Numbered from the stretch's first letter, positions 1 through 60,743 are shown. The stretch is 64,000 nt of DNA from Microthyrium microscopicum (GCA_010405405.1 MU004235.1:1564538-1628537), one strand, 5' to 3'. Notes: generated from the letters alone by a model not told the origin. Numbers and translations: made by a program.

Positions 1-899
1 CTTCTGTAAGATGCAGTTGACGTATGGCTACGAGCTTTAATCTGATCACTGGCTTCCCATCGGCGGCGAAGGCGACCACGATGTCTTATGACAGAAGTAT
101 ACCTACTTTTCCATCTTAATCATTATATTGAGCGAATACTTATTCACTCGATGAAAACAAAAAACCAATTAGGCGATCGTGGTACATGCATTCCATCCAT
201 TTTTGTCGGTCATGACGAACCCAGGAGTTGCTCATGCTCCAAAGCCGCCAGGATGCGAATCGTTGAAGCGTAGTAGTTAGTAGTGTGTGCCAACACAAGG
301 CGATATTTCAGTCAACTATACTTTGGCTCAAATCCAATTCAGTTTAGTGCTCATCCTCTGCTTGGCCGCCATCAACTTTACTCATGATTAAAATTTTGGC
401 ATTTCAGTTTGCTCGTGCTCAACCCTGTCATTATTCCACGTTTGGGTCCTATTTATACTTAGTATAGAACTTTAGATTAATATTCCAAAGGATGCTGCCA
501 CGGTTTGCTCATATCCGCATGTGACAAATCACTCCTCGTCCTTGTCAGTTGTCTTATTATGTCACTTTATGTGGTCTTTGCAATGTAAAAACTGGATCTA
601 AAAATAGTCCAACGGCTTCGCACCGCACCGTCCCGACGCTTGGAAACGGGACGAGCTTGCAGGCTGTCCGCGAGTCAGGATGCCAATAAAAACGATCGTT
701 CTTATTGGCTATCCCATCGTACCTTTTGCGCCACTGTCTCATCTCGAAAGGCACTGATTTCACGTTACATCTGCCAAGTGCTTGTCATCCTCCTTTCCCC
801 CTCCTGAGCTTTTGAATGGAGCAAGCATGCGATATCACTTTGTAGACAGCTGAAGCAAAGCAAGCGCTTGAGCCATTTGGTGGAGCGACAGACATCAAG

Positions 900-2093
900 A
901 TGACTATTATTCCAAAGAGTCGATTTTACCTCAGCCTGATACTTTACATGTTTGTGTGGTGTCAACGGACCCTGGCACAAAGCGATTGCCCGTCAGAAGA
1001 CCTTCTCGTTTACTCTCCTTTCAAACCATGGTTTTCATTTTATCAAGGATCAAGCCAAAGATGCTGGTCAGCCGCCATATGTTTATTCCAAGCAGCCGAT
1101 GAAGCAAGGAAGCAGCAATTCTCAGCAACTGCACTGATCATGGGACTGCTCCCGTTGACCCTAAAGGATATCGCTTGGCCTGAACGTAGACTTGTTCCAG
1201 TATCCCACCGATTACCAGTGTTGGCCGAGATTTTGGTTCGGGCGCTTAGTCTTGAACCTGTTGAAGTACATGGCAAAAATGAAGCAGAGAAACGGACAAT
1301 GACCGAGAGCTGGTTGACAATACATTCACCCAGCCTGGCTGATTGGGTTTGGAATCTGGAACAGAAGAGAATATTGTTCTACGTGGCGGGATCAACCCTC
1401 TCTCTGCTCCTTACATATGCCGCACTGGTGCTGGTGGAAGTCTATTCGAAACGCTCATCGCTCGGCTGCATATATCCAGCCTTCATTTTGACTTGGTACA
1501 TCGTAGCTCTCTTACCAGCTACAATTCACACACTGCTATCAAAACTGCGACATTCGAAACAGAAAAGAAAAGCCAAAGGCATTTTGGAAGCCAACCTCAA
1601 CATAGTCACTGCAGACACACCAATGACACCACACCCAAACGATGTTGAAAGCGCTGGTGCAATAGTTTCTGTGATCAGCGAGCCAAGTTCATATCCTCGT
1701 AAGACCCATTCAACGCCTCTCGGGGCTCGCGATATCAAGAACCAAAACATCACACTGGCAGATCCAAGGACTTTGAGCCAAAACGGACAAAACAAGAGTC
1801 TCACTCGATCCCAGATAGCATCTGCCGTACAGGGAGCCGAAGAGTGGTGGATAGTCCAGCTCGTGTGGGCGATCTACTATATTGCTGGAACACTTGTTTT
1901 TACTTCCATCATGGCAGTCACGGTCATCGAACTGTTTGTTTGGGTCATGACTGGCTTTGCAGTAACTGGAGCAAGTAAACTGCTGGCGCTCTTGCTTTGT
2001 ATGTCGTTCGAGGTTACCGGAGAGAGTCGACCACGATTCATACAGCAGGAAGGATCTACCAGTCAATTGAAAGACACGATAAATAAAAGGTGA
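900..2093 (+). CDS. Hypothetical multi-pass membrane protein with probable signal peptide
   Basis: 397-aa ORF with a hydrophobic N-terminus (FYLSLILYMFVWCQRTLA) and several TM-like segments. No family recognised. Confidence 0.7.
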   Translation: MTIIPKSRFYLSLILYMFVWCQRTLAQSDCPSEDLLVYSPFKPWFSFYQGSSQRCWSAAICLFQAADEARKQQFSATALIMGLLPLTLKDIAWPERRLVPVSHRLPVLAEILVRALSLEPVEVHGKNEAEKRTMTESWLTIHSPSLADWVWNLEQKRILFYVAGSTLSLLLTYAALVLVEVYSKRSSLGCIYPAFILTWYIVALLPATIHTLLSKLRHSKQKRKAKGILEANLNIVTADTPMTPHPNDVESAGAIVSVISEPSSYPRKTHSTPLGARDIKNQNITLADPRTLSQNGQNKSLTRSQIASAVQGAEEWWIVQLVWAIYYIAGTLVFTSIMAVTVIELFVWVMTGFAVTGASKLLALLLCMSFEVTGESRPRFIQQEGSTSQLKDTINKR

Positions 2094-2586
2094 GGTTGTG
2101 CCAGACCTCGTAAACAGCGAGGCAGAGTGATTGGAGTTATTCCATCAATTCTGGTAGCTGCCACCAATAATGTTAAACAAAAGATGCTTTATTTCCCACT
2201 GGCCTCTATGGTAAACACAGCACTGAATAAAAGATGTTGCGTCCGGGAGCCAACGAGGCTGATGGGAGCTCGCAATTATTTTGTCGACCCTTTGGTCGTC
2301 CTAGGTGCTATTCTACAGGTACCAAACTTTCAAATGTCTTCGCTTTTCTACGAATTTGTGGTACGATGTGTTCCCACTCTACCAAAACATCTGTTCTTTC
2401 CAACAAGTGCCCTTAAAAAGTCAATCTTTCTATCTTAATATCTCATTCCGTCAGTTTTGTTCTGAGCCTTGTTTTAAAATCTGCCAATATCCGGTCTCAC
2501 ACGCGCCGTTCCCTTCCCATTCAAGCTCCCTATAACTTCCTTGACAACAACCTCGCGGTTCATTTGCTCTGACTACCTACTCAGCC

Positions 2587-3669
2587 ATGGCTGCTCGAAC
2601 TAATCCCCATCCCACAAATTATCCTGAATTTCCAACAAATCACGATGACCCACCCTCAGTACTGCCCTGTATCAAACCATCATCTGGCCTTGTACAAGAA
2701 CCCAACAGCAAAAAGCCACAAGGAAATGCCGGTTTTCTGGATTACTTGCCCCTCGAGATGATCCAGATGATACTCCTGCATTTCGATATCCAATCTATCA
2801 CTCATTTCGAGTCTTTCAATCCTCACACCAAAGATCTCGTACAATCTCTCCTAGAATATCGCGCCATAGTCAAACACGCATCCAAAGCACTGCATCAGAT
2901 CCTAGCCATCGAATCCGGCGAGTATATCACATTGCAAACCCTCTACACCAAACTATGCACCGCCAAATGCGAGTCCTGTGGACACTTCGCCAGCAACCTC
3001 TATCTCATCACCTGCAAACGAGTCTGCGACTCCTGCTTCAAATCAAAGACAAAATGGTACCCAAACCCATGCTCATTAGCCGAAGACATACTTGGCCTCA
3101 GCCCAGCCCAAATAGCCACCCTTCCGAAATTTCACAGCCCACAACGTTCCAGCAGATACCAGCTCCGAGCCACAACATTCCAATGGTACGCCGACCGCGA
3201 AGCTGCGTATGATATCGCCATAAAGTCCGGCAAATTTAGCCCACTGTCCCTCAAACCGCCCATATTCGACTCGGTGTATGGGATTGGGATGGAGTACTAT
3301 GTAGCGCCACGATGCCGCACTGCCGGCCGGCGGTTACCAATACGATATGACGCATTAATAGATGTGCCGTGGCTAAATAGGAAGACGAATAAGGGAGAGC
3401 ACGGAATGTACTGTCCGAGATGTAACCGTACCAATGGCCCCAGTGGTTTGGAACTTCGTCGGCTCTTGACTGATTATTATGAAAATAAGGATCTTGGGGT
3501 TGCGCAAGTACGGGTTATTCTACGGGAATCAGAGGAAAAAAGAATCCTGGGACTTTCGCCTAGGTGGCCTCAGTGGCGCAAGTACGCGAAGATGAGTTTG
3601 CTGGATCATCTGTGGGAACACGATGGGCTGGACCGCTTGTCGACGGAAGAGAGAAAGAGAAATGGATGA
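2587..3669 (+). CDS. F-box domain protein with Cys-rich (CxxC) putative Zn-binding segments
   Basis: F-box-like LDYLPLEMIQMILLHFDIQSI followed by CESC..C..VCDSC and CPRC, the layout of a common fungal F-box family. Confidence 0.8.
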   Translation: MAARTNPHPTNYPEFPTNHDDPPSVLPCIKPSSGLVQEPNSKKPQGNAGFLDYLPLEMIQMILLHFDIQSITHFESFNPHTKDLVQSLLEYRAIVKHASKALHQILAIESGEYITLQTLYTKLCTAKCESCGHFASNLYLITCKRVCDSCFKSKTKWYPNPCSLAEDILGLSPAQIATLPKFHSPQRSSRYQLRATTFQWYADREAAYDIAIKSGKFSPLSLKPPIFDSVYGIGMEYYVAPRCRTAGRRLPIRYDALIDVPWLNRKTNKGEHGMYCPRCNRTNGPSGLELRRLLTDYYENKDLGVAQVRVILRESEEKRILGLSPRWPQWRKYAKMSLLDHLWEHDGLDRLSTEERKRNG

Positions 3670-4265
3670 GTGTTTCATTCACGAGCACTATAAGACGACA
3701 GCTCAAACCAATGGATATGATGGATGGCGGGATCCCATTAGCTGCAAGTCCTTTGGCACTAGCTGTCCACGATTTGGTACCAACTGCTTTGTTTCCCATT
3801 AAGTATTACGAAGGAATTGCGGATTATCGACCAAAATGGCAATTTAAAAAAATCGCTTTGGATAAGTTGCGCCGGTTGCTATCGCACTTCATGGGAACGT
3901 AACATTATTTTGTCAAGCAGTGGCTCGTTAGCACCCTCGATACCGTAATCAACAAGGCAAGGTTTGTGACTCGACGCTTATTCTCATCGTAAGGTGCGAT
4001 GGGAATTATCGTAATCGATGAGCCCGCCACCTAACTTCGTCGCCCGTAGACCCTAACTCATGCTATAAAGTCGAATGAATGTTCAGTGCAGAGGATAGGA
4101 AACTCAAGATAAGACAGTTTTAGATATTATATTACGTTCATTACTAACAAATCTAAACGCTCCAAAGCCAAAACGCCATGCCACCCATTCATACAATCAT
4201 CACAATACTCAAGACATTATCACCAACCACCTTTTCAACAGCCTATTTCTCATGCGTTCAATAGC

Positions 4266-6113
4266 TTATTTCGCCGAGAACTTGGATCGCTGGCGCAATG
4301 TACTTCCATAGTACCAGAGTGCATACAATCCAATACAACAGCCCACAATCAACCCGCCCAGCAATGACACACCACGGTCCACTCCTAGATTTCCAAACAA
4401 AGGACGCGAGAAGTGGATGGCACCAGTAGCCAAGCTTGATCGCACAAAATCATTGCCGGCGAAAAGGGAGGCAGCGTATTGTGGATATGTCAATGGCAGG
4501 AAGACAAAAATGCATTGGATGACGATGAATATGCCCACTGTGAATATCGTGATTCCAATCGTCGGCACAATCCAGTGGATATCTTCCCGACTAGTCCAGC
4601 CGAAGATGAATAGGCCAGCGGGACAGAACCAAGTGACGACAAGGGCTGGGATGAGACGTCGTTCGGGGGCTCCGATGCCGTTGGCTTTCATGTCAGGAAC
4701 GACGTACCAGTACAGCCAGGACCAGTATGTGGCGATAGCAATGATGACTCCGACGGTGATGGAGAGGAAGGCGAGGCCAGATTCGCCGAGGTTGAAGCCG
4801 TAAATGTCGTTGTAAACGAGTGGGAAGGCTTCGAAGAAGGAATAGTAGATTCCGTAGATCAGCGCAGTGTAGAGGGCAGTGAAACCGACTGCTGGATCGA
4901 GGAACATCATTTGGAGTGGTCGGTACAAGTTCTCGAGGATGAGGGCGGAGATGCTCATGTTCGCTTGGTCGATCTCGGATTGCGCTTTGAGGTTCTGGTT
5001 GCCTGTTGCAGCGCGGAGGCGGCGCGCGCGGTGGAGCAGGATGGTGGAGGGGTTTGTTTCGGGAAGGAAGAAGAACATTGCGATGAAGACTGGGCCGGCG
5101 AGCCAGAGCATTTCCCACATGGACCAGCGCCAGTTCTCAGCGGCAACGGAGAAGCCGGAGATGATGGGACCAAAGGCTGGTCCGCAGGTTGCGGCGAGGG
5201 CCCAAAGGCAGACGGCGAAGGGGAGATAGAGGAGGCTGTACATGTCTTGGAGAGATGCGCCGCCTGTAGCAAGACATGGCGAGCCGAAGAATCCTTGAAG
5301 AAATCGGAGCACGACCAGACCTGGGAAGTTGTTTACCAATGCGGTTGGGACACAGAGAATGACGAAGATGGCGAATGTGAAAACGTATGGTGGATTACGA
5401 CCGATGGAAGGAATCTCTGAAAGAGGGGACCAGAGCATGGGGCCTAGACCATAGGCCAAAACGTACATTGAGAGACCCATTGAAGCCAATTGAACGTTGA
5501 CGCCAAATTGTTCTATGATGCCTTGTTCTGAAGGAGCATAGATGGAGGATCCCATATACACAGCGGTAGTGTACAAGCAAATGATTAGAGTAACCCAGAG
5601 CTTCTTACTCAGTTTCCAGTTTTGTGGGTTTTCTGGATCGTCTGTCGTATACCAATCCACCAAAATGGTGCCGTCGTCAAGTCGATCCGGGACAATAGGT
5701 CTACTTGGTCCCTTTTCGGCAATGGCGAGAGAGAGTTGCTGTTCTAGATCGCGCTGGGAGCTCGATCGACTGAGAGCAGTTCTACTACCCACTCGTTCGA
5801 TCTGTCCGCGCTGAGTTCGTTGGGTGTGCATTTCTTCTAGGTGAGGGCCTTCTGCCGGTACAGTGACCCTCTTTTCCAAGTCGGTTGGCTCGGACGAGTT
5901 AGTTTCTGCTTCTTCCACAGGCTCTTTGTCGACCTTTTCGGCGTCTCCAGAAACGCTTGGCGAAGGTTCGGAAAATGGGGTATCCATGGCCGATTTGTTG
6001 GAGTAGGTGTGTGGGCATTCAAAATCTGGCTTCTCTTCTGGATATTGAAGAACTTTGTTTTTGGTGAGATAGCGGATGGCCTGGCCGACGGGAGCATCGC
6101 GAATCCACTCCAT
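4266..6113 (-). CDS. MFS multidrug transporter, DHA1 family (Flr1/Mdr1-like)
   Basis: 615-aa intronless ORF with ~12 TM segments and the DHA1 motifs VDWYTTDDPENPQNW, GPMLWSPLSE..GR, RFLQGFFGSPCLATGGAS, LPET and PERRL. Confidence 0.92.
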   Translation of the reverse strand: MEWIRDAPVGQAIRYLTKNKVLQYPEEKPDFECPHTYSNKSAMDTPFSEPSPSVSGDAEKVDKEPVEEAETNSSEPTDLEKRVTVPAEGPHLEEMHTQRTQRGQIERVGSRTALSRSSSQRDLEQQLSLAIAEKGPSRPIVPDRLDDGTILVDWYTTDDPENPQNWKLSKKLWVTLIICLYTTAVYMGSSIYAPSEQGIIEQFGVNVQLASMGLSMYVLAYGLGPMLWSPLSEIPSIGRNPPYVFTFAIFVILCVPTALVNNFPGLVVLRFLQGFFGSPCLATGGASLQDMYSLLYLPFAVCLWALAATCGPAFGPIISGFSVAAENWRWSMWEMLWLAGPVFIAMFFFLPETNPSTILLHRARRLRAATGNQNLKAQSEIDQANMSISALILENLYRPLQMMFLDPAVGFTALYTALIYGIYYSFFEAFPLVYNDIYGFNLGESGLAFLSITVGVIIAIATYWSWLYWYVVPDMKANGIGAPERRLIPALVVTWFCPAGLFIFGWTSREDIHWIVPTIGITIFTVGIFIVIQCIFVFLPLTYPQYAASLFAGNDFVRSSLATGAIHFSRPLFGNLGVDRGVSLLGGLIVGCCIGLYALWYYGSTLRQRSKFSAK

Positions 6114-7957
6114 GGCAAAGGTTTTGAAAAGTGATCAAGCGGTGTGTGATGTGTTGAGATAGAGAGGTGTTGTGGTTGATACTTGGTATGCAGGAAGCCT
6201 TGTTGGTGTTGGCAGATGGTATGAGGAAGGATTGATTGAGTTGAAAACAAGAAGGAGAAAACGAGGCGGGAGCTCAAAAGAGTTTAAATAGTGCAACTGA
6301 TAAAAGGAGCTCCATTGACTACTACTAGCATATCTTCTTTAATAATGCCATAAAGTCCGATTAAGCTACAGGTATGGTGGTGTACCTTTGGGTTAGCTCC
6401 AGGAGCTTGTGAGCTGCAAGCTTGAGCACTCAAATGACAAAAAGAGGGATGACAAATGTTTAGATCCTGGACATGGAGTGGATCGCCAACAATCGCGTTT
6501 TCTAACCATCCGTCCCAAAAGCCCGCCGGACGGCGGGACTTTTCTCACTACTATTTTGCCAAGATGGGATAACCTTGATTCAGAATCTTCCATGATTCTG
6601 ACTGATGCAAATGCGCGTATTTACGCCTTATCCGGGTGGCTCCAAGAGATATTCAGAATGGCTTATGGGCTCATAACGTTAGGTTACGAAAGTTGCCGAC
6701 ATCCATGTCACGGAGAATGTGTGAAAAGCGAGCGAACAGAGGGTGGCCTGTCGTACAAAGGCCATTGATGACTGAATTGAACCCAAATCGATTGTGATCT
6801 TGATTCATGATTCTTGATACCTACGATAGAGAAGTGTGTCGCAGACTCGCAAGTCGCAACAGGGGAAAATGCGACATCAGGGACAAATAATTGACAATGG
6901 GCAGATACGTCACCATCAGTCAGCTTTTCCTGCCTTCTGATTGGTTTCGCTTAGTCTATCCCAATTCCCAAATCCCCAACTGCATGTCTGCAACAAACCG
7001 ACACTGATTTGCAGGAGACTAAACAAACTAAAATCGAAAGAACATGCAACTTGATTGATAAATGAGCCACCAAATAAGCCAAGAACATTTAGTCGGCATA
7101 AAACTGTGTATCGTGCTGCTCTAGTTGATGTCGATGCTCCAAGCCAGTGAAGCCACTATTATTGAAGATTAGGAAACAATCGCGAAGTCCCAATTAGGTC
7201 TAGCTCAGCCGCTGCAAAGACTAAAGTCCATTTATCTCCAGACTGTCCTCCACCTCAAGCTCGTGAGCTCCTCCAACCAACATCAAGATCATCACATCAT
7301 CAAAGTTTTAGCTTTGCCACTAGTACTTGCAACCTCTAGTGGATCTTCAACCAAAATGATTGATAAAGCTCTGCCGATCTGCATGATTGTTGAGAACTTG
7401 AGATTCCCAATGTTCTTTACATTCTACATAGTCGGACGAATGTTTCCCCAGCTCTCATTATCAAGCTTTTCAACAGCTAATATCCGCCTCGCCCATCACC
7501 TCCAGCTACCGGTAGCTCAATCACCTGGACACTTATTAAATGGTACCGACTCCGACTCCGATTCTCATGCTTCGACGTGTGCGATGCCTCTAGACGAGAA
7601 TTATCTGTAGACTTTGTTTTTGTCTTTGATCTTTGCGGTCATCAGATTATTTTCAGAAGTATGAAAAGACCTCAGGAATTCCTATACTATCGCCACAATG
7701 ACAAATGGAAGAAAAGACACCAAAAAGTGGTCTGTGAATTCTTTCTCCGACCAATTTGACCGGATTGTAAGTTATGCATTCTTGCATTTTCTTTTTAAAT
7801 TAAAAATCGAACCAATATACTGGTAATCAGTTTGAATAGAAAGACAACACGCTCCAAGCAAAAAACTTCTCCGTATCATACACTAAAGCACTGAACAGAG
7901 ATATTGAAATACCTTTTTCACACACCAACATGGAACATCATGGTGGCTACCAGGCCA

Positions 7958-9065
7958 TCAGTGATGTCCATGTTCCATATGCTTCATCTCCATATGCTTG
8001 GACTCCGTATTCTTGGAATCCGTATGCTTCATGTTCATGTTCATACCCGTCCTCCCACCAACATGTTTCGGCGCTTTCACCGCCGTACTCCCATTAAATC
8101 TCTCAGTCGCCCAGTCTCTGATCTTCCCCCAGTTCCTACATACATGCGGTCTATTGGTGTCGATATAGCTCATGCCTAAACCCTCAAACCATCTACTAGG
8201 AATAGGCGTCAAGTCCGCATGGCACATGAGTGATTGTCGAATCGCATCAAAGCAGTGGTTGCGATGCAGAATGGGGTCTACGTGTTCGTGGTGCCCGTGT
8301 TTACTGTTCTTGTAGCGATCTGGATGAAGTTCTTGCCGGATGAAGTTGAGACAGTGGAGAAGATGTAACACATCAAGGCCGCCTACGTAGCCGCCATCGC
8401 CATGCTCTTTGAATTGTTGGTAGTTTGGACCCCATGATTCTCGGGCTTCTTGCTCTGTCATTTCAAAGTAACGGCCTGAGGGTGATTGTTAGTCTGGTAT
8501 TTATGATGAAGCCAAGGGAGGGAGCGAAAGCTTCGAGTGCGATGTAACCAAGAGCCAAGTACGAGGGCTTTTGATGCATGGCACGATCATCTTGGAGGAT
8601 TTTACAGGACTTACCTCCAATAGTATCCATCCAATTATCATCAAGCTCATCATTCGCCTCACCAATAAATCTTCTCTCATTGGGATCAAGAATCAGTGAT
8701 CCGACTCCTTCCTTGGTCCAGGTAGGCGTTCCCCAAAACATTTTAGTTTCTATTGAGATTTGTGATCTTGCACCTGCTATTTCCGTCGAGAACCCTTCTT
8801 CAAAAGACCCCAAAGAAGAGGAGGCCGATGAAGAAGCTGCAGATATTGTTTTGGAGACTGTCGGAGTAAAATACAACCAAACAGTTAAGCTGAAGAAAAT
8901 TATGTTTGATATCCAAAGAAATGTCGTTGATTTCCACCACCCCTTTCGCTGTGGTCTGATGACTTGATTTTCGTCATCTTGATTTTTCTCCATCAAGGGA
9001 TCATCTTCCACCTGGCTGTAATTCCATGATTTATACCAGCGAGGGAGTGATGAAAGCATAGCCAT
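7958..9065 (-). CDS. UstYa-family / DUF3328 oxidase (~322 aa; exons 9065-8615 and 8475-7958)
   Basis: N-terminal TM anchor (FLWISNIIFFSLTVWLYF), two HxxHC motifs (DVLHLLHCLNFIRQ; HRNHCFDAIRQSLMCHADLTP) and a distal HVCRNW. A GT..CTAAC..CAG intron at 8614-8476 joins the two listed ORFs in frame. Confidence 0.93.
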
Positions 9066-10581
9066 CAGTTTGTTGAGAAAAATTATCGTACAGCAAGCAA
9101 GTGAGAAGGGAAACAAAAAAAATGGATCAAGTGGAAAAGGAGGACTTGGCCAACTGGTGATGCAGATTATATCACTTGGCCCCCATTATCTGATAGACTT
9201 TTACTTCAATTTCCCGGTAAATGGTACAACTTCTCTGACATTTCGGTAGACCAAGATCACCAACAATCTAGACCGGAATATTTCAATCTGTGTTTTGATG
9301 CATCGGGGTCTTGATTCTTCCGGCTGGTATAATAATATTTTTACTATATTGCTCTGACGATACTCAGCTATAAATAATTGTAATCCAAAGTTCTGGGCAT
9401 GAAAAACTTAGAGTAGTTTGTGGAGATCAAAGTAGTTCGCCATTTGATTAAGAGATGAGAACAGCCTGAACAGGTCAGCCCTCACCGAAATGATCTGGGG
9501 AAGATATAGATTGTAAAGCAAACACATCAAACAATGCCAAGTGAGTTTAATGAGCATTGGCGCCAATCGGCTGCTGGCAAAGCAATATTAGTACGAACTT
9601 TGATATATAATACCTGAAAAAGTTACCTAATATTAAGGTTAAAGATATTTGTCTAAATTCTTAATACGTATTGCCAAGAAAGCCAAGTATCGTAGTTAAA
9701 GTGTAGTAGTGTATGGCCAAGAAAAGCCAAGGGAAAGTAGGGTATTCGATATCAAATAACCGAACTGTCGTTCGTATATGTGTATATGTGCTAAAGGGCA
9801 GAGGTATTCATGGAATGCCCAATGTGCCTATACGTGGCCACACACCAGGCTCGTGGAAAGGAGAAAGCGTTCGTAGGATGATGGAGAATGATGCCAAAAA
9901 AGCTTATACGAACTTTCCAAGTATCACCAGAATGTCCAAGAAAAAGAGGGCTGCTTAGATATAAGTATCAGACATCAGAGTTGGCCCCAATAATGACGGG
10001 TGTTTGGAATGTATTCGCGTCGCCACTCAGACTGGTTATAGCTCAATATAAATTAGTACAACGGGTGATCACCCCTGAGTGACTCTTAAAAGTATGTGAA
10101 CCATATTCAAATGTGTCTCTTTGCAAGCCCTGGGGTCTGTCGCCATCAAGGACCAACCGAGCCGACACCATCCACAGATTAAGAGGCCAAGCCGAGTAAA
10201 AGCTGTCAATTCTCATCAAAATGAGAGTACCAAGACGGAAAAGACGGTACTTATATCATTAAAAATAGAAATAGTTGGTCACAGACTAACTTTGCCATCC
10301 GGAGACCTGTCTCAATCACTGCCTGATTTAGACACAGGTACGAGTACTCATTTCTACGCTAGCATATTGATGTATTCTTCCATGAATCGGTGTTGAGAAT
10401 CATTAATCTATGTGTTGTTTATGACAGTTATGCGAATTTGATGAGGCTTCATCATCATCATTCCGAAAGGTCTCCAAGAACCTCGTGCTCATTGAACGGA
10501 GTGAAGCATAGTAGTCCAAATTACCTCCGTCAGCATTACCTTCACGATATTAAGGCACTGTTTACTAGAACCTCAAAAGCG

Positions 10582-10587
10582 TATAAA
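10582..10587 (+). promoter_or_regulatory. Putative TATA box of the repeat-precursor gene
   Basis: TATAAA ~100 nt upstream of ATG 10684, which sits in a good context (TCAAAATG). Confidence 0.45.
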
Positions 10588-10683
10588 GAGACACATCTTC
10601 CCGCAGGATCATACTTTCTCATCATCACAACTTACAACTTAGTACTTCTATTAAACTTAGTCACTCACTTAACAACCTTCAAA

Positions 10684-11454
10684 ATGCGTTTCACTTCAAT
10701 CATCGTTTCCTCCATCTTGGCCTACTGGTAAGACTTCATCATGCTTGCTTTGCACACGAAAAACTAACCATATATAGCGCCATGGCCTCGCCAGCTGAGC
10801 AGGCCACTGCTGCTGTTGCCGCACCAGCTGCACCAGCTGCCCCAGCCGCACCAGTTGTCGCTGAGTACCGTGATGGCGGACGTGACGGATACCGCCGAGA
10901 TGCTGGTCGCGATGGATACAGACGCGATGTAAGATCTCACCCGCATGCCACATAGACTTCTGTTCGAAACCTCATACTAACCAATTCAGGGCGGCCGTGA
11001 CGGACACCGTGATGGCGGTCGTGATGGACACCGCGATGGCGGCCGAGATGGACACCGTGATGGCGGCCGAGATGGACACCGTGATGGTGGACGGGACGGT
11101 CACCGTGATGGCGGTCGGTAAGTCAACATGAGAATCAACCATCTGATGATTATATACTGACGAATTTTCAGCCGAAACTACAAGCGCGCCGAAGCTGCCG
11201 TAGCTGCTGAGGAGTACCGTGACGGTGGACGTGATGGCGGGTAAGTTTACCTCTTATCAACTGTCTTCCCAACCTAATTAACAACTTCTAGATACCGCCG
11301 CGATGGTGGCCGTGATGGACACCGTGATGGCGGCCGCGATGGTCACCGTGATGGCGGTCGTGATGGACACCGTGATGGTGGACGGGACGGACACCGTGAT
11401 GGCGGACGGGACGGTCACCGTGATGGCGGACGTGATGGACACCGATACTACTAG
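10684..11454 (+). CDS. Secreted repetitive peptide precursor (KEP/RiPP precursor candidate), 184 aa; exons 10684-10727, 10778-10928, 10990-11117, 11172-11240, 11292-11454
   Basis: Four introns, each with a GTAAG donor, a CTAAC/CTGAC/CTAAT-type branch point and a YAG acceptor, splice to a 555-nt open frame: MRFTSIIVSSILAYCAMA-SPAEQATAAVAAPAAPAAPAAPVVAE-YRDGGRDGYRRDAGRDGYR(RDGGRDGH)5RDGGRRNY-KR-AEAAVAAEE-YRDGGRDGGYR(RDGGRDGH)6RYY*. Repeat units vary at synonymous positions in this frame. Confidence 0.92.
10990..11448 (+). repeat. 24-nt-period coding tandem repeat (RDGGRDGH)
   Basis: CGN GAT GGY GGN CGN GAY GGW CAC: 5 copies around exon 3 and 6 in exon 5. Confidence 0.95.
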
Positions 11455-12427: not shown

Positions 12428-14874
12428 CTATATGACTGTGATTACATTGCCAAGATACATCTCGGAGTACTTCTCACCACGTTCCTTTCGGCTTGCATTT
12501 TGTGGGCTAAGAACCCATTTGCCATCCTCGTGATTGTCCAAGAGCTCTGTAGTAGGTTTCTTCGTGATGTATGTGCAGGCTGGGTGTCGCTCCACATCCG
12601 ATGCTTGTTCTGCGGTCAACTTAACAAGCCTCCATTCTACCCCGGAGCTGCGAGAATACCCAGTGCCACTGTCAAATACTTCGAGATTCTCACCAATCTT
12701 GGCGGAAAGTGCTGGATACTCCTCGTGGTCCACTAACAACCAGATCGCAAAGATTCCATGAGAGGGATCTTGCTCATCTTTGTCAAAAGATCGGTAATCT
12801 GAAAGTAATGACACAAATTCATACCCCATTGTTGAAATTATTAACATCCCGATCCTCTTGTATTCTTGCAGATTCATATCAGCGCATTGAAGAACAAGCG
12901 CATAACAGTATTGATGAAAGTCAGCGTTTGGCTCATTGCTGAAGAAGAGCATGAGAATGAAAACCTCTGTGTTGTCCTGCAATTGGTCATCGCCGTGAGC
13001 CGACCAATTGTAATCGCATTTGAGGTCAAGTTTGGGAAAGCTCCATTTTGCTGATCCCTCTTTCCCCACGCTGATGGATGGAATAAATTCGAGGTTTCCA
13101 TCGTCAGAGTAGTCAACATCTGCTCTTATTAGATTACCTCTGATTCGAAGCTTCCCATAGTTCAATTTTCCCTTGGGGTTCGCCTTATCCTGGGGTTCGA
13201 TTTCCACATCAAGGATCTCGCACATGTACTCATTTGTTTTCGTTGAAATTGTGGGATAGTATATCCAGCAGTTTGCAGATGCCCAGGACCAAGTAGGTGC
13301 AAAAGTCAGAGGTCTGATTTTCCCAGGTTGGCGCCCAACAACGTACCAAATCAAATCACCAAGCAACGCATTCTCCCAAAGACCCGCCAAATATCGCCCT
13401 GGAATATCTCTGTGGAACTCTTGAGCAAGACCTGCTATCGCTGGAAGGCGATCGGTGGAGTAGGACAACAAAGTCCTGGAGTATTCTTGAACGACCTCGC
13501 GCCAATGCTGGTGAATATCAGAGTATGTAGCCAGGCCCGTTTCTCTATCCCTAGAAGGTTCCGGTGCGAGACTCCCGCGGGTTTTCCGAGTGACGATATA
13601 CGATATTCTTGCATCATGATAAGGCTGATATCCGCCACACTGACAAGTCTGCTTCTCCATACACTCCCAGATCAATTCGAGTTTGTTGAAATGTACCACT
13701 CGAGGCGACAAAACTCGCTCTTGTAGTACCCATGCTCGCTGGAGAAGGGGATAATCATTGTCGTAGTTTGCGTAGGAGTTTGCGTGGGAGTCCCCAAGAG
13801 AAAAATGTTTCATGAGAGATCTAACATGTACTTCGAAGGTTTCTCCCACATCTCCACGTAAGATGAATGAGTTTCCACCGTTGCGATCATAAAGTAAACC
13901 AGTCTCACTATTCGGAGATGCTGTGGCAGCCAAAGTTAGATGGGAATGCTGATATATCAATGACATATTTGATGCCTCTCTATTCCAATCGTGATCGTCA
14001 TCCTGGATGATGCAAAGAGAATCAATCCAGATGTATTGAATCCCTAGATTCCGCGTGAATACGATAGCATCTTGAAAAGTCTGAGGCAAAGAAGTCCAAG
14101 GTATTTGTTCTTTGAAACTCTCGCGGTTTCCGTTCATCATTCTTATGGGTTGCGAATCGCCCCAGCAGTGACTGAGACAGGTGTACTGGGCAGCCGGTTT
14201 GTTAGTTGCTTCAACAAGTCGGACTGCTGAGTTTGAGCTTCCAACATGTATGACGCGACTTGGAAAGAATGTAGTCGCGGTTGTACATGCCGTGTTGTTT
14301 AATGGTTGCAAACGTGTTGACTCCTGATGTCGCTGATCGCATTCTACATGCTCAGAGATACACGATTTCAGTTGTTGAAGTGTCCATGGTAAGGCTTCCG
14401 TTAGCGCTATGCAAGTCAGCGAATGCAAGTGCCAAAGTGAGCCAGTGTATGAAAATGCCTTCTGCAGATACAACATACATGTGGTCGCTGGACTATCAAA
14501 AAGGCAGAAACTTCGGAGCTCAATGATTCAAAGTTCATAAGGATTTAAAGTGCAAGTCAGTAGGTCTTACCTGACGCATCTAAAAACTCTACACTCATGG
14601 AACCCCGCCACACATATACCACGACCCTCCGATCAACAAATCTCCCTAGATTGAAGTTACTTGGCTGTCCTTCTGTGAACAAGTCAACTCCGCGCTTAAT
14701 CAGCGCGCATGGCTGACAGCCATCTTGTATAGCTTCAATGACTTCTCCTGGCGTGACTATTCGGTGCAAGTTCTTGTCCAGGAGCAGAATCCGAGGCCAC
14801 GCCTGCTCGCGATCACAGCCGCACAGCCAGCATGCATTCTCAAGCTTCGGAAACGACTCCCAGGAGTCATTCAT
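12428..14874 (-). CDS. HET (heterokaryon incompatibility, PF06985-type) domain protein
   Basis: Motifs YTCLSHCWG, LPQTFQDAI..TRNLGIQYIWIDSLCIIQDD..DW..EA..M..IY and PLLQRAWVLQERVLSPR. The first exon (14874-14571) has CxxC motifs and a GTAAG donor; the acceptor is uncertain. Confidence 0.9.
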
Positions 14875-54511: not shown

Positions 54512-55756
54512 CTAAGACTGACTGGACGCCGGTTTCCGTCCAATAACTACGTAACTACCTTCAAATTAGCTTCGACCTCTTCGTTTCTCTTCAGGGATCC
54601 ACTTACAAAGGAATATAGCTATGCATCTTATTACTCGGCAACTCCTTCTTCAGCCTCATAATCGCCATCTCCAACTCCTCCAACGTCAACCCACATTCCT
54701 TCGTCCACCCCCTCATCATAAAACCCCTCGCGCCTTCTAGCACATTCATCAATTCGTATGCGCCTATCCTCTTCATTCTCGGATCTTTCGGCCACGGGCT
54801 ACTCGGCACTTTCAATACATATTCCTCCACCGCCTCAAAGCCCGCCTCCACAAACCACTGCTTGAAGCGTTTGGCGGAGTCGGGCTCACAGTTTATTAGA
54901 GCGCCAGCTTTTTCCCACACGTCTGCTAGTTGCATGTACGCGGAGGTGGGGTCGAGGGTATTATCGTCTGTTGCAGGCTGCGGGTGGATTGCGCAGAATT
55001 CTACGTAGCCGCCGGGCTTGACGTGGGTGAAGGCTTGGGAGACTAGTTTGGGCCAGTCGCGGATTGCTTGGTAGAGGTCGCGGAGATGGATGTAGTCGAA
55101 GTGGTTTTCTTGGAATGTCCAGTCCAGTTCCGCATCGTCAATCTGAAAGTTGCAGTTTGGTGGCACCCATTGTGGTTGCACAGGCGCAATATCTGTGCCG
55201 ATTACAGAGCAGGAGGGATATTTGTCAGCGAAATCGATGGCCCAGATACCCGTACCGCAGCCGATGTCGAGGGCGTTTTGGGGGTCTTCGGGGAGGGGTG
55301 CGAGGAAGTGCTTGTTTTGCATTAGGAGGTAGTATTTTGTGTGATTTAAATCTAGGCGGTCTAATTCTTCGTCGTCGATGGGGAGGAGATACTCTAATAC
55401 GAACTTAGTCGAGGTTATTGGGAAAATATTGGTAGTTGGTTGGTGTCAGGGGCATATAAGGAAGTCACGATGGGCATGGTGTTGAGTTCTTGGAAGAGGC
55501 GCTTACCGTGTTTGCCGTAGTTGGCATACATGCGGCCATTTTCTATGTGACCTTGCCGTATTTCCGAGGCGATGCTGGATAGTAAACTTGACGTTGAACT
55601 CTCTTGGTATCCTTCATCGTCTGGATTGTCATTGTCTGCTTCAAGGGGGCCAGCATGATGTGTTGTCGCAATGTCGTCTTGTGTGGTGGTGGTTGGAAGA
55701 GCAGTAGTAGCAGCGGAAGGTCCAGAACCAGAACCGCTAGCAGACGCGTCGGCCAT
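54512..55756 (-). CDS. SAM-dependent methyltransferase, LaeA-like family
   Basis: ENGRMY, PIDDEELDRLDLNH, ALDIGCGTGIWAIDFAD and PVQPQWVPPNCNFQIDDAE. The spliced end reads ...IPF|YVVIGRKPASSQS*. Confidence 0.9.
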
Positions 55757-58982: not shown

Positions 58983-60743
58983 ATGGCTGCTTCCCTTGGA
59001 TCAGAGCTCGACACACTCGTAGCTGACCTTACTGGCGCAGTAAGCGAGTACAAAGCTGCAGCGGCCAACGAAGATCAGCTAGGTGGAGATTTGGCGACGC
59101 GGATGAAGGTTATTACCACCGCGCAGAAGATAGTGCATGCAACAAAGAAGCCAGAGGAGCAGTGGTATGATCAATCCGTTTGGGTAAGTTTAATAGATTT
59201 TGTACTATTTTTTCCCAAGTACTGTTGAATGTTTGAAATATATTTTCCACAGCGAGTTCTTTTGCTATACACAGAATGTTCAAGCATATGGCGTGGAAGT
59301 AGGCTGGAGAAACTATACTGCAGTGATAGCAGCGGCTAGTGGTAAGAATAAGTCAATTGTTGTTGGCACGTCTCACCAGATTTTTACTCCGTTTAGTATA
59401 CTATAAGGTTTGAGATTTTCGATGCTACCTGACACGGGCATCCTCGAGTGTAGAGTCAAAAGAGCCTAGAGAAACACTGGCATGGCAGAGATTTTAAAGG
59501 GTAGGATAGAAACGACACTGGTTGTTCTTTATGTTTTTCCATGACATCTTTCTTGAATCACAGGGTAACCAAGCCACCGATCGTCACTGACCGTTGACCA
59601 CAACACTAGATGGCAGATCTGACTGCGACACGGATTTTCAAGAAATGGGAAGCATTTGCTGCCATTCCAGCAGTCGGTGAAGGCAGCATCTCCTACGAAG
59701 ATCTCGCCAAAAAGCTTGACGCTGATACCTCACTCGTCCGTATGAACTACCACTCCGCCACTCACTGACCAAACTGACGTTTTACACAGGACGTATCGCC
59801 TGGGTCCTAGTATCAACTGGCACACTGAAGCAAATCGGCACCGACAAAGTCGAAAACACCACAAAATCCATGGTCTACGTCAACAACGACTCCAACGGCA
59901 TGATGTTCCAGATCATGTACGACGAAGCTCTCCGCCCCTACGTATTCATGTCTGAGTATTTCGAGAAGTATGGCCGCCGAGAGCCCAGCGGCCAGACTGA
60001 TAATCCTTATTCTTTCGGTTACCAGCAGCCTGAGAAAACCGCTTGGGAGATCATGGCGGCGGAGCCGGCGAGGGTGGATGCTTTTATGCGGAGCATGGAT
60101 ACTATGGAGCAACATTTGCCTATTACGGGCTACTATGATTTCAGCTGGGTCAAGGAGAAGCTTGAGGCAGAAACAGAGAGGACTGCGTTAGTTGATGTTG
60201 GTGGGAGTAGAGGGCATGCGATCAAAGCCATTTGTGCAGAGACTGAGTACATCAAGGGTGCACAATGTGTGTTGGAGGATTTGCCGCAGGTCATAGAGCA
60301 AGTGAAGACAAATGGCGATGAGGCCCTCAAAAACGTGAAGCTTCAAGTGCATGACTTCTTTACTGAGCAACCTATCAAGGGTACTTCGAAACCTCATGGC
60401 CACTTACCATTTCTCTTTCACTTATTGACATTTTCCAGGCGCCCTAATCTACTGGATTCGCCGCGTTCTACACGACCACAACGACACCGACTGCGCTAAA
60501 ATCCTCACTCACCTGGCTGACGCCATGGCTCCAGATAGCCGCGTGCTGATCGTCGATCAAATCATGGAGAATCCGCCTCCTCCACTGGTCGCACAGACGG
60601 ATTTCTGCATGTTGACGATCTCAGGTAAGGAGAGGACCAGAGAGATGTTTGAGGAGCTGGTTGGGCGGGCCGGGTTGAAGGTTTTGGAGGTGCATTTGGC
60701 CAAGGGGACGCCAGTGGGTGTTGTGGAGTGTATTAAGATTTGA
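58983..60743 (+). CDS. O-methyltransferase (Methyltransf_2, fungal secondary-metabolite type)
   Basis: N-terminal dimerisation region, LVDVGGSRGH, LEDLPQVI, HDFFTEQPIKGA..YWIRRVLHD and GKERT. Three introns, the first unusually long (~59184-59610). Confidence 0.9.

Follow-up and report, generated by a model that had tools for sequence, protein, structure and literature searches.

A UstYa-type oxidase gene beside an apparently orphan secreted octarepeat gene in Microthyrium microscopicum

Positions 4266-11454 of a 64-kb Microthyrium microscopicum window (the window being the whole stretch of DNA that was analyzed) hold three genes: a major facilitator superfamily (MFS) transporter gene and a UstYa/DUF3328 oxidase gene on the minus strand and a gene for a secreted repeat protein on the plus strand. 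An initial annotation had taken this trio for a dikaritin-type locus, that is, one producing a ribosomally synthesized and posttranslationally modified peptide (RiPP). All three genes are genuine, and of that proposal the UstYa gene, the secreted repeat gene (real and under selection), and the divergent layout were upheld. The part that fell away was the multi-core precursor with cleavage sites flanking each core, and no dikaritin cluster is demonstrated at the locus. Our leading reading, held tentatively and just short of an even chance, is that the oxidase and repeat genes are neighbors without a substrate-enzyme tie and that the latter encodes an orphan secreted His-repeat polypeptide. Judged by sequence, the oxidase and the transporter appear to be new members of known families, and the repeat protein appears to depart from the defined precursor architecture.

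The repeat gene and its protein

The repeat gene runs from an ATG at 10684 to a stop codon at 11452-11454, with five exons that together give 555 nt encoding 184 amino acids. Its exons are given below with the cover found in X1, the only public run with this locus, available as contigs only, of unrecorded library kind, whose contig depths cannot rank genes.

10684-10727, plus strand: exon 1, signal peptide; ATG, hydrophobic residues 3 to 18, and GTAAGA donor; no X1 cover
10778-10928, plus strand: exon 2, remainder of the signal peptide and a stretch rich in Ala/Pro, followed by GRDGYRR motifs with Tyr; donor at 10929 confirmed by an X1 contig
10990-11117, plus strand: exon 3, first five GGRDGHRD units; 24-bp array; both borders confirmed by an X1 contig
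11172-11240, plus strand: exon 4, RR, NYKR (the sole KR), second Ala-rich stretch, and Tyr motif; acceptor confirmed by an X1 contig
11292-11454, plus strand: exon 5, YRR, second GGRDGHRD block, C-terminal Tyr-Tyr, and stop; 24-bp array; intron 4 without X1 cover

The four introns are 50 to 61 nt long, and all four have GTAAGA or GTAAGT donors, YAG acceptors, and a CTRAY branch motif, in agreement with the number first annotated. The X1 contig joins 10928 to 10990 and 11116/7 to 11171/2 with 100% identity, thereby skipping exactly introns 2 and 3, and processed RNA of the repeat gene must therefore exist; RNA support for splicing covers these two introns, with introns 1 and 4 uncovered. Because it contains spliced sequence, the run included RNA or cDNA.

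Tandem Repeats Finder reported two 24-bp arrays, at 10990-11114 (5.2 copies, score 180) and at 11298-11444 (6.1 copies, score 203). The ten GGRDGHRD units that these encode differ from their nucleotide consensus at 22 points, every one of which (22/22) is a synonymous third-position change, against the 25% silent share expected of random single changes in the octarepeat. The variation occupies six columns and represents at least nine independent changes. Since all of the changes are synonymous, the reading frame is fixed and selection on the exact octapeptide is strong; the octapeptide is maintained by purifying selection. Gene conversion was considered as the cause of octarepeat identity and was rejected because it would also have homogenized the silent sites. 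We regard the repeat gene as genuine on four independent grounds, namely, its intron anatomy, the splicing seen in X1, the signal peptide, and the synonymous-only variation.

The signal peptide, called by a hydropathy heuristic and not by SignalP, consists of hydrophobic residues 3 to 18 followed by a small-x-small site. The composition of the protein is G44 R37 D29 A22 H11 Y9, and the mature form has 166 amino acids, a net charge of +3, an isoelectric point of 9.4, and 11 His; it contains no long hydrophobic stretch, and no N-glycosylation sequon was seen by eye in the protein. Two similar halves were recognized. In each, an Ala(/Pro)-rich stretch that closes with Glu-Tyr is followed by Tyr motifs, GRDG(G)YRR in form, and then by five exact copies of GGRDGHRD. 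Between the halves lies RR-NYKR, with the sole KR, and the C terminus is Tyr-Tyr. There are five dibasic sites (RR54, RR63, RR108, KR112, and RR133; one KR and four RR), with Tyr immediately before four of the five (residues 53, 62, 111, and 132). Cutting in silico at KR and RR produced fragments of 37, 9, 45, 4, 21, and 50 amino acids, with the GRDG(G)YRR ending common to three of them. Kex2/Kex1-type trimming would leave most of the fragments Tyr-ended. The GGRDGHRD octarepeat itself is not flanked by dibasic sites and contains neither Tyr nor an aliphatic residue; Tyr is found only in the motifs beside it, and the aliphatic residues closest to it are those of the Ala-rich stretches. Within the octarepeat there is one Asp-flanked His per eight residues, in ten exact copies. 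Thus, the coordinates first given for a secreted repeat gene with a KR site (10684-11454, plus strand) hold, with a signal peptide and KR112, and the remark that its Arg/Asp/Gly/His core is unlike the known hydrophobic Tyr cores is borne out by an octarepeat lacking both Tyr and aliphatic residues.

Homologues of the repeat protein were sought with single exons. A word-indexed search with exon 5 among proteins of 31 to 100 amino acids gave nine matches at E values of ≤0.1 among 6,726 candidates, all low-complexity GGRDG/GGREG look-alikes with neither His periodicity nor a signal peptide, and the same exon against longer proteins gave nine matches among 8,000 scored, each of them to a low-complexity tail, bacterial or other. 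Exon 2, searched exhaustively with HMMER over 1.84 billion representatives, returned four matches at E values of ≤0.001, all to unrelated repeat proteins. The ESM Atlas gave no usable match, Pfam gave no family for three of the exons, and a literature search with octarepeat strings returned only a spurious match in which the letters stood for D-arginine. The protein therefore appears to be an orphan, with no true homologue among these searches; this absence counts for little as evidence because the queries were single exons and intron-rich genes are often uncalled in the source assemblies.

The oxidase gene, the transporter gene, and their surroundings

The UstYa gene encodes 322 amino acids in two minus-strand exons (9065-8615 and 8475-7961, with the stop at 7958). 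It lies head to head with the repeat gene, and the spacing of about 1.6 kb noted initially was measured as 1,618 bp between the two ATGs. The oxidase, intergenic, and transporter features are as follows.

8615-9065, minus strand: UstYa exon 1, short N-terminal region, membrane helix, and first half of the lumenal domain; 49% identity to residues 1 to 151 of relative P0003, E value of 4e-50
8476-8614, minus strand: UstYa intron, 139 nt, GTAAGT..CAG; placed by alignment to P0003; branch-site motif present
7958-8475, minus strand: UstYa exon 2 with stop, both HxxHC motifs, and Met/His-rich tail; PF11807, E value of 6e-36
9066-10683, no strand: divergent intergenic region between the UstYa and repeat-gene ATGs
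6113-4269 (stop codon 4266-4268), minus strand: MFS gene, one exon, 615 amino acids; uninterrupted open reading frame (ORF); 100%-identical X1 contig

When the profile check against PF11807 was run, exon 2 matched with 124.8 bits (cutoff of 25) at profile positions 112 to 220 of 220, confirming the annotated UstYa/DUF3328 identity; exon 1 alone had no Pfam match. Both HxxHC motifs are present, as HLLHC at residue 188 and HRNHC at residue 221 with 28 residues between them, and their six His/Cys residues are invariant in 13 aligned sequences (UstYa and 12 database relatives). The single hydrophobic segment in a Kyte-Doolittle window, residues 48 to 67, fits the family membrane anchor; by analogy with CctR, the C-terminal domain would be lumenal. 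A search of the PDB by sequence with the UstYa profile found no solved relative (best E value of 0.17, to an unrelated protein).

The placement of the UstYa intron was examined against relatives and transcripts. The full-length relative P0003 (299 amino acids) aligns to exon 1 over residues 1 to 151 and to exon 2 from residue 153; since it spans both exons, the intron is correctly placed. The sequence of relative P0002 continues through an insert at this position. Weighing against the call, the sole X1 contig that covers the gene (7411-9432) retains the intron, and the dominant UstYa transcript may retain it.

The last 35 residues of UstYa (7961-8065, minus strand) include 6 Met and 7 His, a tail that was not found in the closest relatives P0001, P0003, and P0004. 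It resembles copper-binding Met/His motifs, in keeping with the copper dependence of the family. DUF3328 enzymes were recently shown to be binuclear-copper oxidases that bind two Cu per monomer via HxxHC(x)nHxxHC; their chemistry is varied (hydroxylation, halogenation, and macrocyclization), and in the topology described for CctR the catalytic side is lumenal (PMC12435403).

The close UstYa relatives P0001 to P0010 share 60 to 81% identity with the oxidase. A metagenome scan found relatives at 47 to 51% identity only, the closer ones not being in that collection, and these represent three distinct loci, as L003, L004, and L005 appear to be one locus. The retrieved DNA of two of the three, L001 and L002, carried no repeat gene; a weak tblastn match to the repeat protein at L001 831-1058 was dismissed as another frame of a 752-amino-acid ORF. 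On L005 (1-10607; also L003 and L004), at least five UstYa-like stretches occur together with a classic multi-core precursor at 2377-2712 (minus strand), which has four 24-amino-acid repeats, each ending in KK or KR, with the hydrophobic core ALYASWGLPD and sits between several UstYa paralogues 47% identical to the UstYa of the window. From its sequence, L005 looks like an uncharacterized dikaritin-type cluster.

The transporter matched Pfam MFS_1 with an E value of 1.5e-32. Its best NCBIfam match was TIGR00880 '2_A_01_02' (7.5e-35, 120 bits, below the 131-bit cutoff), and it matched Bcr/CflA (4.5e-20) more strongly than DHA2 EmrB (3.6e-9) in the same collection. We take TC 2.A.1.2 (TIGR00880) to be DHA1. 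Crude hydropathy gave 10 partly overlapping segments, not a clean 12. Of the initial call, a DHA1 MFS transporter on the oxidase strand, the MFS assignment and strand stand, and DHA1 type is the best reading of the sequence, although the match falls below the curated threshold. MFS genes are unenriched around repeat precursors (Umemura 2020, PMC7329392), and the transporter gene therefore adds little to the case for a cluster.

Tailoring genes were sought in the remainder of the 64 kb by a Pfam scan of 37 long ORFs (9 plus 28), which short or intron-rich genes could escape. Three of the first nine ORFs had matches (MFS_1, UstYa, and HET), as did 6 of the other 28, four of them at cutoff (Vps18, NAD kinase, and two methyltransferases) and two below threshold (DUF7730 and PAN_4). 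No tyrosinase, peptidase, P450, nonribosomal peptide synthetase (NRPS), or polyketide synthase was found among the 37, and tblastn detected no second UstYa copy in the 64 kb. Nor was there a methyltransferase near the trio, since both such ORFs lie more than 43 kb off, a distance too great to assign them to the trio without further evidence:

54606-55445, minus strand: methyltransferase-domain ORF; Methyltransf_23, E value of 3.7e-27
59726-60496, plus strand: O-methyltransferase ORF; Methyltransf_2, E value of 8.3e-5

The fungal character of the window is evident in its short GT-AG introns, HET-domain gene, and Vps18 and NAD-kinase genes. The trio is flanked by the HET gene and two ORFs without a Pfam family. 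Immediately downstream of the repeat gene is the HET ORF (699 amino acids, 12431-14527, minus strand, E value of 7.1e-32). From 14500 to 42000 the long ORFs have no Pfam family apart from the subthreshold DUF7730 and PAN_4 matches; this stretch is gene-poor or lineage-specific. In the divergent intergenic region a TATAAA occurs about 95 nt upstream of the repeat-gene ATG. A bacterial promoter/terminator scan of that region, which found 5 sites versus 3.8 expected, is meaningless for a fungus.

X1 contigs cover all three genes to different extents. A contig spanning about 800 to 7113 and including the MFS gene has a mean word depth of 1,283. The genome-colinear UstYa contig, which keeps the 139-nt intron, has a depth of 678, and the spliced repeat-gene contig, 192 nt long, has a depth of 2.6. 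Regions without X1 cover (7114-7410, 9433-10023, much of 10247-10910, and repeat-gene exon 1 and intron 4) are uninformative. This single run gives no sign of coexpression of the UstYa and repeat genes, which is a weak hint. The UstYa contig ends at 9432 in sequencing adapter with no poly(A) before it; because the adapter is not preceded by a poly(A) run, we read 9432, a position 367 nt upstream of the ATG, as what may be the UstYa transcript start. The MFS-covering contig extends 1 kb upstream of the MFS ATG (6114-7113) without a convincing ORF, and this segment could represent a long 5' untranslated region or, in the space separating the MFS and UstYa genes, a transcript not yet annotated.

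Relation of the oxidase to the repeat protein

Dikaritin precursors are repetitive proteins with multiple core copies, which are released by Kex2 and cyclized at Tyr by UstYa-type enzymes (PMC9233826, PMC7329392). The rule of Umemura 2020 calls for three or more tandem repeats, 8 or more amino acids long, between KR, KK, RK, or RR sites (PMC7329392), and the repeat protein falls outside it, as its octarepeats are unbounded by dibasic sites. The rule of Le Marquer 2019 calls for at least four fragments with a pattern common to at least three (PMC6339444), and here the protein is a borderline case through the GRDG(G)YRR end of three fragments. Dikaritin cores also combine aromatic and aliphatic residues, a sequence criterion, and the octarepeat has neither residue type.

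The reading of the two genes as neighbors is preferred because the octarepeats lack dibasic flanks and because the composition and architecture of the protein are atypical. It is further favored by the finding that 68% of 9,399 DUF3328 genes have no repeat precursor within 15 genes (PMC7329392), by the two of three distinct distant UstYa loci that carry no repeat gene on the DNA retrieved, by the single UstYa copy, by the lack of tailoring genes among the ORFs scanned, and, more weakly, by the lack of a coexpression signal in X1. The locus was moreover flagged as a striking coincidence, which raises the share of chance neighbors among such cases. On this reading, the repeat protein would enter the endoplasmic reticulum and be cut by Kex2 in the Golgi, at the only KR, which lies between its halves, and probably also at the Tyr-preceded RR sites, so that the secreted products would be two His-bearing octarepeat polypeptides of about 45 to 50 amino acids and short Tyr-ended peptides. 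The regularly spaced, Asp-flanked His residues might serve as ligands for divalent metals or behave as a pH-sensitive polyampholyte, although we think this rather unlikely. UstYa, membrane anchored and lumen facing, would have a different, unlinked substrate, and the MFS gene would be an ordinary drug:H+ antiporter-type neighbor.

Several observations weigh against chance neighborhood, and most of them speak equally for a noncanonical UstYa-dependent RiPP. Secreted tandem-repeat proteins made up 69,264 of 14,491,621 proteins (0.48%) in Umemura 2020 (PMC7329392), and by arithmetic from those counts a direct secreted-repeat neighbor would occur by chance for about 1% of genes; the immediate, divergent adjacency at 1.6 kb is thus unlikely to be accidental. 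The frequency of DUF3328 genes peaks directly next to precursor genes, and Tyr occurs in 65.6% of DUF3328-linked precursor repeats (PMC7329392). Both products are bound for the secretory lumen, the one by its signal peptide and the other by its membrane anchor with the CctR topology. The Tyr found before all but one of the five dibasic sites, together with the three GRDG(G)YRR ends, looks like a processing design, which the Le Marquer pipeline might accept (PMC6339444), and the perfect conservation of the repeat peptide under strong selection is the behavior of precursor cores. The diversity of DUF3328 chemistry (PMC12435403) points the same way. The repeat protein would then be the substrate of the oxidase in the Golgi or vacuolar lumen, where its Tyr motifs or its octarepeat would be modified before Kex2/Kex1 release of mostly Tyr-ended peptides, a scenario that we consider possible but doubtful. 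The accompanying proposal, that charged Gly/Arg/Asp/His or Tyr-Arg-Arg units carry Tyr-, His-, or Arg-side-chain chemistry unlike Tyr-aliphatic ethers and new to fungal RiPPs, is entertained with the same reserve. Against both stand a main repeat with no cleavage flanks, Tyr, or aliphatic partner and only one KR in the protein; the lack of homologues and hence of synteny evidence; the lack of other tailoring genes among the scanned ORFs; and, weakly, X1, with no coexpression sign and a UstYa contig that keeps its intron.

In the mammalian prion protein, octarepeats that carry His bind Cu(II), and the repeat protein offers an Asp-flanked His every eight residues in ten exact copies. It is conceivable, though improbable, that the two genes form a copper-handling pair in which the secreted His/Asp octarepeat binds copper in the lumen or outside and serves or buffers UstYa. 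The two Cu per DUF3328 monomer (PMC12435403), the Met and His residues in the UstYa tail, and the divergent promoter region common to both genes would suit such a pair, whereas the available portions of PMC7329392, PMC12435403, and PMC9233826 report no accessory copper protein for DUF3328 systems, and the Met/His tail is not shared by P0001, P0003, and P0004. A canonical dikaritin cluster, with many short cores that are cut by Kex2 and macrocyclized at Tyr as in ustiloxin or phomopsin, is the least probable of these explanations and in our view very unlikely. Points in its favor are a UstYa with both motifs, a neighboring MFS gene, and a repeat-containing protein with a signal peptide and a KR site, but the main repeat lacks the site-flanked multi-core architecture, no tyrosinase or second UstYa was found, and the cores are unlike any characterized in the available text of PMC7329392. 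The remaining weight falls to other explanations.

The locus is accordingly not a near-certain new RiPP class, and we consider it a fair candidate for heterologous coexpression. We know of no substrate for most of the thousands of DUF3328 genes. If the oxidase does act on its neighbor, the family would have a wider substrate range, one that takes in highly charged peptides with His, and the locus would offer a compact two-gene system for study. If the two are unrelated, a UstYa gene beside a secreted repeat protein does not by itself make a dikaritin cluster, and genome mining would need a test for site-flanked, multi-core precursors. Either way, the octarepeat protein, an apparent orphan under unusually strict selection, would be worth attention in metal-binding and peptidomics work.

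Comparison with known systems

With the dikaritin systems (ustiloxin, phomopsin, and asperipin-2a) the locus shares a UstYa of the HxxHC(x)nHxxHC type beside a secreted, dibasic, tandem-repeat gene with an MFS gene nearby, and asperipin-2a also uses a single DUF3328 gene (PMC7329392). It differs from them in that its 8-amino-acid repeat, present 10 times, lacks Kex2 flanks and Tyr, with only one KR in the protein; in that the protein has a duplicated two-half design in place of three or more cores in a string; and in being extremely hydrophilic (Gly/Arg/Asp/His). Its composition is unlike both the characterized cores described in the accessible part of PMC7329392 and the ALYASWGLPD core of L005. 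Unlike in dikaritin clusters, no tyrosinase, methyltransferase, or peptidase gene was found near the trio among the ORFs scanned.

With repeat proteins that are processed by Kex2 (KEPs) in general, the protein has in common that it is secreted and repetitive and has KR and RR sites, which would yield six fragments, three of them with a common end. KEPs without homologues number 2,560 of 7,878 (PMC7329392), and the repeat protein resembles these in that no true homologue was found in our searches. The oxidase differs from CctR in its extra Met/His-rich tail and in that no NRPS or other backbone gene was found among the ORFs scanned in the 64 kb. With CctR-type DUF3328 enzymes it shares the N-terminal membrane helix, a lumenal helical domain, the pair of HxxHC motifs, and the conserved Cys residues, by analogy with which it would be expected to bind copper.

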